Of a DNA stretch of 29,019 nt, positions 9,001-12,000 are shown in pieces. How positions within the stretch are numbered: the first letter of the stretch is position 1; every line of letters starts with the position of its first letter. The position numbers are program-made. The DNA comes from a virus (taxonomy: Duplodnaviria; Heunggongvirae; Uroviricota; Caudoviricetes), in IMG/VR virus record IMGVR_UViG_2579778660_000004, positions 1 through 29,019 of that record. One strand, given 5' to 3'.

Positions 9001-12000
9001 GTTAGCCCTGGCCGCTGAAAAAGGGCAGGCATGGGTAGCCAATGCAATTACTGAAGAATATCTGCGCCAGGGGGGCGGCGAATTGCCCCTGGTACCAGGC
9101 AAGGACTGGAACAATCATCAGAATATCTATCACCGTTGGTTGAAAGGTGAAACGAAAGCGCAAAGGGAAAAAATTCAGAAACTGATCCCTGCGGTTCTGG
9201 CAATTCTTCCGCGCGAGCTGCGTCACCGACTCTGCATCTTCGATACCCTGGAACGCCGTGCATTACTGGCGGCGCAGGAAGCGTTGAGTACGGCAATTGA
9301 TGCGCATGATGATGCAGTCCAGGCAGTTTACCGGAAAGCACATTTCAGCGGCGGTGGGTCGCCCGGCGATTCTGTCGTAGTGCATTGATTGAAATTAATC
9401 GTGCCGGACTGTTTTGTTCGGTATCAGTTAAATGTAACGCTGCGAGCGTTACAAGGTGAAAACAAATGGCTTCAAACTGGATAAAGCTCGAAGTGATTAC
9501 GCCGGATAAGCCGGAAATATTCAGGCTTGCTGAGATTCTGAATATTGATCCAGATGCCGCATTAGGGAAAGTCATTCGCTTCTGGGTATGGGCGGATCAA
9601 CAAATGATAGACGGTAACGCGGAGTGTAACGCTCGCGGCGTTACAAAAAGCGCAATAGATCGCATCACTTTTATGGCTGGTTTTGCTGATGCGTTAATTC
9701 AGGTTGGATGGTTGGTCGAAACTAATGGTGTGTTGTCGCTTCCTAACTTTGAGCGCCATAACGGGAAAAGCTCTAAAAAACGGGCGGTTACAAACGAGCG
9801 AGTAACAAAAATACGCGAACTGAAACGAAAAGGTAACGCTGGCAGCGTTACACAAACGGATCAAAAAGCGTTACCAGAGGAAGAGGAAGATATAAATACT
9901 GATCTAACCCATCCCAAACCCTTCCCTTCCGGAAGGGAGTTTCGGGATTTTGTGGCTGGAGTGCTTGAGGGGAGATTGTCTGGCGGTACTGCAGCAGAAT
10001 TTTGTAATTCTGCGGTGGCGGCGTTGCAGGCTGCTGGCCTGGATGTCTGTCGTGAGTATCCGGTACCAGAGCGTGGAGACGGCTGCGGAGAGCGGATTGA
10101 TATCGTCGTGACTGACAGGAACGGTGTCCGGTGTGGGATCGAACTTGACCGAAATTCTCCACGACAAAAATCACTGCTCAAAATCGGTGCTGTTGAAACC
10201 GGGATATGTGTCTTGCGGCGCAGTGATATCGCAAGGCACACCGAGCAGGGAATTCTGGTTATCGGTGGGGCGGTTCGCCAGAAAAAATTCGACCCGTTGT
10301 CAGTTGCTCTGCCCGATTGGTTGCCGGAAACACTCTGGCATGAGTGGGTCCAGTTCAGGCGGGCATTGCGAAAACCGATTCGAACGGAGCAGGGCGCTAA
10401 CGGGGCGATACGGGAGCTGGAAAAATTCCGCCAGCAGGGTTTTTCACCTGAGCAGGTGATTCGACACAGCATCGCCAATGAATACCAGGGCTTGTTCGCG
10501 CCGAAAGGTGTTCGACCTGAGACGTTACTCCGACAGGTTAACACCGTCTCGTTACCGGATAGTGCGATCCCGCCAGGCTTCAGGGGGTAACTGACCATGA
10601 AAAATATTGCGACAGGCGGCGTTCTTGAACGTATCCGCAGACTGGTCCCGCCACATGTAACCGCCCCATTCAGAACGGTAGCAGAGTGGCGAGAGTGGCA
10701 ACTTGCTGAAGGCCAGAAACGTAGCGAGGAGATCAACCGCCTGAATCGCCAGTTGCGGGTGGAAAAAATTCTGAATCGCTCAGGCATCCAGCCGTTGCAC
10801 CGTACATGCTCGTTTGCGAATTACCAGGTGCAGAACGACGGTCAGCGATACGCGTTGAGCCAGGCGCAATCTATCGCTGATGAACTGATGACCGGGTGTA
10901 CAAATTTTGCGTTCAGCGGAAAACCTGGTACCGGAAAAAACCATCTGGCGGCGGCTATCGGGAATCGCCTGCTGAAAGATGGCCAGACAGTGATTGTGGT
11001 TACCGTGGCTGATGTCATGAGTGCTCTACACGCCAGCTATGACGACGGGCAATCAGGTGAAAAATTTTTGCGGGAACTGTGCGAAGTGGGGCTGCTGGTT
11101 CTTGATGAAATTGGCATTCAGCGCGAGACAAAAAACGAGCAGGTGGTGCTGCACCAGATTGTTGATCGCCGGACAGCGTCGATGCGCAGCGTGGGGATGC
11201 TGACAAACCTGAACTATGAGGCCATGAAAACATTGCTCGGCGAGAGGATTATGGATCGCATGACCATGAACGGCGGGCGATGGGTGAATTTTAACTGGGA
11301 GAGCTGGCGTCCGAATGTCGTCCAGCCAGGAATTGCGAAGTGATTTTTACCGGGAGGAAATTTTAATGGAGACTGTTTTTGACGCACTGAAAGCGATGGG
11401 AAAAGCCACGTCGGTAGAACTGGCTACGCGACTTGATATCAGTCGTGAAGAAGTGCTGAACGAGCTGTGGGAACTGAAAAAGGCTGGCTTCGTTGATAAA
11501 AGCGTATACACCTGGCGTGTGGCTGATAACAACGTTCAGCAGGAACAGACCGCACCGACAGAACAGCCGGAAGAAACCACCACGGCAACAGTCGCGAAAA
11601 TTTCGGAGAGCGATTTAACTGCGACGATTGAACAACGTGGCCCACAAACGGCGGATGAACTGGCTACATTGTTCGGTACCACATCACGCAAAGTGGCTTC
11701 AACGCTGGCTATGGCAATCAGCAAAGGACGCCTGATTCGCGTAAATCAGAACGGTAAATTTCGTTACTGCCTGCCGGACGGTAATTTACCAGCAGAGCCG
11801 AAAGTTGTATCGGTAGCGAAAACACCTGGTAAAGCCTTTCCTCAGCCAGCCGGTGTTGCGTTACCAGTACAGGAAGCGGCAACACAGGAAGATATTAAAA
11901 CAGAAACTATGGCGGACATTGTGCAGTCGCTACCATCGTTCACCGGAATGCGAGCGAATGGCCTGATTTTACCATCGCTGCATATGGCAAACCGCGAACT

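Follow-up and report, generated by a model that had tools for sequence, protein, structure and literature searches.

Probable replication origin formed by GTAACGC half-sites within the initiator gene of a Rac-type prophage

Introduction

The DNA considered here, a stretch of 29,019 bp from the IMG/VR virus record IMGVR_UViG_2579778660_000004 that is termed the window throughout, is a Rac-type lambdoid prophage of Escherichia coli and shares 100% identity with the chromosome of E. coli STEC367 across the 1221 bases compared (9380-10600). Its replication region comprises an initiator gene encoding 374 amino acids (aa; 9466-10590, plus strand, ATG at 9466) and the downstream gene ydaV (10597-11343, plus strand) for a DnaC-like helicase loader. 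Copies of the heptamer GTAACGC are gathered within and just upstream of the initiator gene, and a first-pass annotation of this DNA had proposed that they are initiator-binding sites forming an origin inside that gene. This proposal is supported by the enrichment of the sites, their conservation at the level of DNA, their co-inheritance with one protein module, an adjacent purine tract and a positional equivalence to lambda-type iterons, so that each computational test of it had a favourable outcome.

The initiator protein and its loader

In the initiator, a winged-helix-like N-terminal module (residues ~10-95) carries a basic segment and is connected, via an acidic linker and an inserted PD-(D/E)XK-like domain, to a C-terminal domain of the DnaT/YdaU type (~273-374). 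Residues 1-145 match PHROG 2509, 'replication initiation protein', and residues 267-374 match primosomal and O-like PHROGs, with PHROG 678 ('O-like') covering just 271-348. The C-terminal 102 residues (273-374) are 89% identical to YdaU of K-12, which BLASTP aligns to no other part of the protein, and this domain resembles the DnaT C-domain (PDB 2ru8, E 1.9e-4). Pfam yielded no match for the initiator at E<=0.01, nor for residues 1-147 when the threshold was relaxed to E<=10; neither Phage_rep_O (PF04492) nor a DUF1376-type N-terminal domain was found in it, NCBIfam holds no family for it, and a Foldseek comparison with the PDB returned nothing significant. Since no Pfam family accommodates the protein, its earlier designation as 'O-like' is apt for role and position and not for descent, the N-terminal module being non-homologous to lambda O and the C-terminal domain being of the DnaT/YdaU type.

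In RefSeq, PGAP splits the intact ORF of 374 aa (in the window as well as in loci L001, L002 and L110) into two pseudogene fragments marked 'incomplete' on account of the in-frame domain insertion, and this split is probably a systematic mis-annotation.

The DnaC-like loader that the first-pass annotation had placed downstream was recovered by library searches: YdaV matches NCBIfam PRK12377 at 502 bits and PHROG 50, 'DnaC-like helicase loader', at 4.8e-81, in addition to the Pfam families IstB_IS21 and Bac_DnaA, while its score for the DnaC equivalog (302 bits) stays below the cut-off of 357. The protein is 95% identical to YdaV of K-12 and is the presumed partner of the initiator.

Number and arrangement of the GTAACGC sites

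Counting both strands, GTAACGC occurs 14 times in the window, as compared to 2.62 +/- 1.63 copies in dinucleotide-preserving shuffles, of which 0/100 reach 14. Eight of the 14 copies are located at 9434(+), 9446(-), 9614(+), 9626(+), 9638(-), 9833(+), 9845(-) and 9868(-), and thus within the 441 bp of 9434-9874, for which 5000 local dinucleotide shuffles gave 0.10 copies with a maximum of 2 (Poisson P ~3e-13). The earlier count of at least eight heptamers in about 450 bp was hence confirmed, along with its three inverted pairs with a 5-bp spacer: GTAACGC-N5-GCGTTAC forms three perfect palindromes of 19 bp at 9434-9452, 9626-9644 and 9833-9851, and no further site in the window conforms to this pattern with up to two mismatches. 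The shuffle comparison that had been suggested as a check came out in favour of the sites both for the window and for the cluster, and the earlier description differs only in detail, in that the copy at 9868-9874 stands in another codon phase and the pair at 9434-9452 is non-coding.

The upstream palindrome, henceforth palindrome U (GTAACGC-TGCGA-GCGTTAC, 9434-9452), lies between the stop codon of the ydaT-like gene (9388) and the initiator ATG (9466), 14 bp 5' of the latter and directly 5' of the Shine-Dalgarno sequence AAGGTG. A second hairpin (GCCGGAC...GTTCGGT, 9401-9425) is found in the same intergenic leader just 5' of palindrome U. Cluster 2 (9614-9644) consists of palindrome 2 (GTAACGC-TCGCG-GCGTTAC, 9626-9644) and an extra forward half-site (9614-9620, plus strand) which is on a 12-bp register with it. 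Palindrome 2 encodes C-N-A-R-G-V-T and codes for a loop (residues 53-57) of the winged-helix-like module, although the AF2 model is of low confidence there (pLDDT <50). Cluster 3 (9833-9874) comprises palindrome 3 (GTAACGC-TGGCA-GCGTTAC, 9833-9851), which falls into a disordered linker (residues 123-129) and is proposed as the core initiator site beside the unwinding tract, as well as an extra reverse half-site GCGTTAC (9868-9874, minus strand) that has a different codon phase and abuts the purine tract.

Conservation of the sites as DNA

The GTAACGC sites are not only strongly enriched but also selected as DNA. When residues 1-147 were held fixed and their codons resampled synonymously, 0.83 +/- 0.84 copies (maximum 5 in 20,000) and 0.03 palindromes were obtained, while the actual coding part contains 6 and 2, respectively. 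This result rejects the possibility, raised beforehand as a potential refutation, that a repeated peptide forces the repeats. Among 20 distant relatives, conservation at third codon positions is 0.887 within half-sites, 0.465 at other sites and 0.325 for the N5 spacers; moreover, the non-coding half-site bases of these relatives reach 0.70, as opposed to 0.29 for other non-coding bases. In a Rac allele with 92% identity, all half-sites are intact and changes have accumulated in spacers and neighbouring synonymous sites. Palindrome 3 is even maintained in another reading frame, being read as AAA GTA ACG CTG GCT GCG TTA CAA (KVTLAALQ) instead of GGT AAC GCT GGC AGC GTT ACA (GNAGSVT); this frame-switched cluster 3 was seen in phages of ~66-68% nucleotide identity, namely Klebsiella ST11-OXA245phi3.2, TL-2011b, Enterobacter BUCT554 and ZX5.

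A comparison of 22 diverse loci from many genera revealed a common layout. Motif density amounts to 10.6 per kb in the region from -120 to +480 of the gene versus 0.18 per kb in the flanks, and clusters 2 (about +148 to +172) and 3 (about +345 to +426) are universal. Palindrome 2 is present at the homologous position in 22/22 loci as well as in a betaproteobacterial homologue of 44% identity. In each cluster, a series of forward half-sites gives way to reverse ones, all spaced on a 12-bp register and oriented towards the dyad. Units are gained or lost in steps of 12 bp (four codons), which accounts for variable 'xNAx' peptide repeats. When compared with distant relatives, the half-site at 9614 is itself such an insertion of 12 bp (4 codons), and it is probably auxiliary, since it is polymorphic among close relatives (GTAACGC in 26, GTAATGC in 23), while the half-site at 9868 is invariant in 50 close relatives. 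In these 50, the arms of palindrome U are likewise invariant and its spacer varies; among the 22 diverse loci this palindrome occurs in ~12 and is missing where the gene abuts its upstream neighbour. From 300 palindromes, an extended consensus was derived that consists of an A-rich flank, GTAACGCT, three G/C-rich bases (SSS), AGCGTTAC and another A-rich flank. One locus without the motif (L024) is an uninformative exception, as it carries a truncated gene remnant matching residues 1-108 only.

Inheritance of the sites with the N-terminal module

In sequence comparison, the sites are inherited strictly with the N-terminal module of the initiator. The Rac prophage of K-12 is closely related to the window in ydaT (94%), ydaV (95%) and the C-terminus of YdaU (89%), but its YdaU N-terminus is unrelated and of the DUF1376 type, and GTAACGC is found 0 times in 6 kb of K-12 Rac. 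Instead, K-12 ydaU (b1359; L106, MG1655, 2261-2578) contains repeats of its own, ATGTTCAAACA / TGTTTGAACAT, of which there are three exact copies (at 2512, 2545 and 2571) and some weaker ones close by, while the K-12-type repeat TGTTCAA has no occurrence in 9380-10600 of the window. Because the K-12 repeats sit just 5' of the shared C-terminal domain, in a place equivalent to that of the GTAACGC sites, they are candidate iterons of the classical oriJ. Given that K-12 Rac has another N-terminus, no GTAACGC and other repeats, the window would therefore carry an alternative specificity cassette.

On the other hand, the sites persist in relatives that possess other repressors, other cII-like or upstream genes, other loaders and other C-terminal modules, the latter being YdaU-type, DnaT-like (PF17948) or annotated as 'DNA replication domain'. 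In the homologue of the betaproteobacterium Pusillimonas (44% identity), the same palindrome is located at +151, and an array of five half-site units spans +344 to +396. An unbiased scan of IMG/VR for the palindrome retrieved 120 loci, 102 of which encode the module (31-100% identity); in the module-bearing loci, 167/169 palindromes lie within 150 bp of the module, and all loci with at least two palindromes (52/52) have it. Only two plasmid records contain the module and both are phage-like, so that they provide no proof of autonomous replication.

The purine tract and its counterpart in a lambda-type gene

Directly past the last half-site, a proposed DNA-unwinding element (9876-9905, plus strand) is made up of the homopurine sequence AGAGGAAGAGGAAGA (9876-9890) followed by the A/T-rich TATAAATACTGATCT, and encodes the acidic linker EEEEDINTDL. 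The surrounding 9860-9919 shows a GC content of 0.35-0.375 and an AT skew of +0.44 to +0.54. Within the 50 nt past the last reverse half-site, the median length of the longest homopurine run is 21 nt in 133 unique homologous loci versus 5 nt in 1761 control windows, none of which contains a run of 21, and A+T is raised to 0.58 as compared to 0.47 in the controls. The tract holds in all identity classes including that below 50% protein identity, and its peptide differs by lineage (EEEEEDI versus REEKRREEKNKEEK), that of Pusillimonas also being different from the one in the window.

An independent reference point is given by locus L231, where a Phage_rep_O gene has four iterons of the lambda type and, at the end of its A-rich tract, ATATAAATACAGATCT, after which the sequence is the same as in the window; ATATAAATAC(T/A)GATCT is common to the tract of the window and the end of the A-rich tract of this lambda-type origin. 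As iterons and tract of L231 precede the shared sequence, the GTAACGC cluster stands where lambda-type iterons stand.

Past the tract (window 9910-9937; e.g. L003 ~1672-1700), many relatives display C-tracts and a short GC palindrome, CCCCC-ATA-CCCCC-AA-GGGGG, with the variants CCCCCTAAATCCCCCTCGG in Rac, Sp10 and K-12 and CCCATCCCAAACCC plus the palindrome CCCTTCCGGAAGGG in the window. By analogy with ori-lambda, which has a palindrome to the right of its AT-rich region, these elements could represent a third component of the origin.

A nuclease-like insertion beside the sites

Mapping of the junction against uninterrupted Rac and Sp10 alleles identified an in-frame insertion (9906-10282, plus strand) of ~377 bp in place of ~38 bp of linker, which follows the tract directly and corresponds to residues ~148-272. 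The insertion has a GC content of 0.55 versus 0.45, opens with C-tracts and the palindrome CCCTTCCGGAAGGG (9924-9937) and is found in 40/5426 complete E. coli genomes. The family of the inserted domain comprises 224 cluster representatives, which mostly occupy residues ~150-300 of proteins of 300-500 aa, including Phage_rep_O initiators, and also includes free-standing proteins of 100-140 aa. Its motif is RIDLV ... IELDRxSPRxKS; in 32 members, hardly any variation is seen at the D of RIDIVV and none at E, D, R, S and K of IELDRxSPRxKS. Profile matches are weak and comprise REase_MTES_1575 in 15/32 members (best 3e-5), Mrr_cat, Hjc and BamHI, in addition to a PDB profile match to 1y88 (E 0.005), and the AF2 model is of low confidence (pLDDT 51). 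On the basis of the motif and these matches, the domain is classed as nuclease-like and tentatively placed in the PD-(D/E)XK superfamily.

The identical junction (…ATATAAATACNGATCT|AACCCA…CCGGAAGGGA…) occurs past the GTAACGC sites in the window and past the lambda-type iterons in L231 (2076-2470). It is conceivable, if doubtful, that the domain specifically occupies the origin-side linker in unrelated phage initiator genes, either as a mobile homing-type cassette or as a working origin-processing domain. If it did cut or mark origin DNA, it would constitute a selfish element aimed at phage origins or an initiator nicking its own origin. A supposed occurrence of the insertion in DUF1376-type ydaU alleles was dropped, as the name derives from the PGAP label of the C-terminal fragment and strain M15, the example inspected, has the N-terminal type of the window.

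Origin function and alternative explanations

Taken together, the GTAACGC half-sites are probably the recognition sites of the initiator encoded there and, along with the adjacent homopurine and A/T-rich tract, form the origin of the prophage. We infer that the N-terminal module would bind the sites, the tract would unwind, DnaB would be recruited via YdaV and replication would start here. More specifically, dimers of the winged-helix-like N-terminal module would bind the 19-bp palindromes (GTAACGCT-SSS-AGCGTTAC), and further subunits would occupy the flanking half-sites, which are oriented to the dyad on the 12-bp register. The complex thus assembled on cluster 3 (9833-9874), and perhaps linked to cluster 2 (9614-9644) and palindrome U (9434-9452), would destabilise the tract at 9876-9905, and the DnaT/YdaU-like C-terminal domain together with the DnaC-like YdaV would then bring the host DnaB helicase to the opened DNA. 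This reading carries three caveats: the initiator resembles lambda O in role and position only and is not homologous to it at the N-terminus; the sites are distributed over three clusters ~200 bp apart and do not form one tandem block; and no experiments showing origin activity for these sites were found in the literature searched. That literature, on oriJ, YdaU, iterons, the motif, non-lambdoid Stx replication regions and epsilon15/phiV10, does not describe the sites.

None of the rival explanations covers all three of the purine tract, the half-sites in direct repeat and the co-inheritance. It is unlikely that the sites serve as operators only, at which the initiator or another regulator represses or roadblocks transcription of the replication operon with the true origin being elsewhere. 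Palindromes are typical of dimeric repressors, palindrome U is situated 14 bp 5' of the ATG beside the ribosome-binding site, and inverted-repeat operators upstream of plasmid rep genes, as in the RepE, pi and RepA systems, bear a resemblance that counts for such a role. Yet no sigma-70-like promoter overlaps palindrome U, which is dispensable (~12/22 loci) whereas the in-gene clusters are universal, and regulation of the operon alone would give no role to the purine/A-rich tract at cluster 3 or to the positional equivalence with lambda-type iterons. Operator and origin roles are, however, not mutually exclusive, and palindrome U, being optional in the family, may be an accessory or autoregulatory site. 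Binding by a protein other than the encoding initiator, be it a host factor or another phage protein, is improbable: co-inheritance is formally compatible with a conserved host factor, but the sites track the module across Gamma- and Betaproteobacteria irrespective of the accompanying repressors, cII-like genes, loaders and C-terminal modules, they are absent from K-12 Rac with its same ydaT and ydaV and other N-terminus, and no DnaA box (<=1 mismatch) exists in 9300-10300.

An effect at the level of RNA, with the palindromes acting as hairpins that alter how the initiator mRNA is translated, processed or kept stable, has very little probability. Palindrome U can form a 9-bp hairpin directly 5' of the Shine-Dalgarno sequence, and the ydaT-initiator leader folds better than shuffles (z = -3.5); nevertheless, the arms are conserved in sequence and not just in complementarity with no compensatory changes seen, many half-sites are direct repeats on the 12-bp register and unable to pair, and no Rfam family matches. 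A last possibility is that the repeats cluster by chance or simply follow from a repeated peptide (xNAx...VT): the forward copies do share a codon phase encoding G/C-N-A, and the peptide GNA..VT is conserved at cluster 2. This explanation is of negligible likelihood, being refuted by the shuffles and the synonymous resampling, the non-coding copy, the frame-shifted palindrome in relatives, the phase-shifted copy at 9868 and the conservation of third codon positions (0.89 vs 0.47 elsewhere).

Gene neighbourhood

The genes of the region are arranged in the order RecT, RecE/ExoVIII, repressor (8138-8599, minus strand), Cro/YdaS-like gene (8701-8982), YdaT/cII-like gene (8966-9388), the 374-aa ORF, YdaV, DUF1627, DUF977 and Q antiterminator. 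The RecE/ExoVIII-like protein (3056-6205, minus strand) consists of 1049 aa and features a long acidic, Q/E-rich centre between its Exonuc_VIII N-terminal match and its PDDEXK-like C-terminal domain. Right after the Q antiterminator gene, the segments 13245-15401 and 16088-17206 (both minus strand) hold three leftward ORFs of 234, 142 and 365 aa and, next to these, a DDE transposase. The three ORFs are without a Pfam family, and one of them has a weak PADLOC match to PDC-S54 (E 0.002); the whole may be a cargo or defence island. In the late region, a perfect DnaA box, TTATCCACA (24399-24407), is accompanied 20 bp away by an inverted copy with one mismatch (24427-24435), the two together spanning 24399-24435, and the whole window has more DnaA-box-like sequences (<=1 mismatch) than expected (16 vs 6.8).

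Distribution and significance

The initiator module, whose DNA target and origin are undescribed in the literature searched, is common: 691 of 5426 complete E. coli genomes have it, with prophage Sp10 of O157:H7 Sakai among its carriers. In addition, it occurs in the Uetakevirus phages BUCT554 (Enterobacter) and ZX5 (E. coli), in phage TL-2011b, in prophages of Klebsiella, Yersinia, Serratia, Erwinia and Pantoea, and in one betaproteobacterial element. The combination of GTAACGCT-N3-AGCGTTAC, half-sites on the 12-bp register and a subsequent homopurine tract might serve for annotating origins of this replicon type. Moreover, such a definition of the site could predict replication incompatibility among co-resident prophages and could explain the odd 'xNAx' peptide repeats encountered in annotation pipelines. 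The locus also provides an example of dual coding, in which the constraints of a DNA site shape loop and linker peptides, as well as of the exchange of initiator-specificity cassettes between Rac-type prophages.

Comparison with known origins

Iteron plasmids, such as those relying on RepE of F, pi of R6K, RepA of pPS10 or the staphylococcal RepA_N proteins, differ from the window in that there is no sequence homology and a weak structural match; neither Rep_3 nor RepA_N shows sequence homology or clear structural homology to the initiator. Furthermore, the sites of the window are palindromes and oriented half-sites inside coding sequence, unlike the tandem direct iterons of ~22 bp in these plasmids.

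For the Rac prophage, an active origin, oriJ, has been reported (PMC3945230). The window shares with K-12 Rac the succession of repressor, cro-like gene, ydaT, initiator, ydaV, DUF1627 and DUF977, but it is devoid of the DUF1376-type N-terminus and of the K-12 repeat family, just as K-12 is devoid of GTAACGC.

In phage lambda, gene O carries in its central part both an AT-rich tract and the iterons, which are imperfect inverted repeats of 19 bp (PMC7466680). As in ori-lambda with its O protein and its loader P, the putative origin of the window is contained in the initiator gene, where the coding sequence passes from the DNA-binding N-terminal part to the C-terminal part that recruits the loader; its sites are 19-bp inverted repeats, with cluster 3 in the inter-domain linker, and purines prevail on the coding strand of the neighbouring A-rich tract, though this is shorter than that of lambda. 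In both systems, added sites add protein residues (PMC7466680). The likeness extends to the lambda-O-type gene of L231, in which the A-rich tract is directly followed, on its right, by a sequence that the window also has. In contrast to lambda, the N-terminal module is not homologous to O and the site is GTAACGC instead of ATCCCT...AGGGAT; one cluster is positioned 5' of the gene and another within the coding sequence of the DNA-binding module; extra half-sites follow a 12-bp register; and a DnaC-like loader and a DnaT-like C-terminal domain take the place of P and the C-domain of O. The plan of an origin embedded in the initiator gene is a known one, and what is new is an initiator family distinct from O together with a newly defined site.

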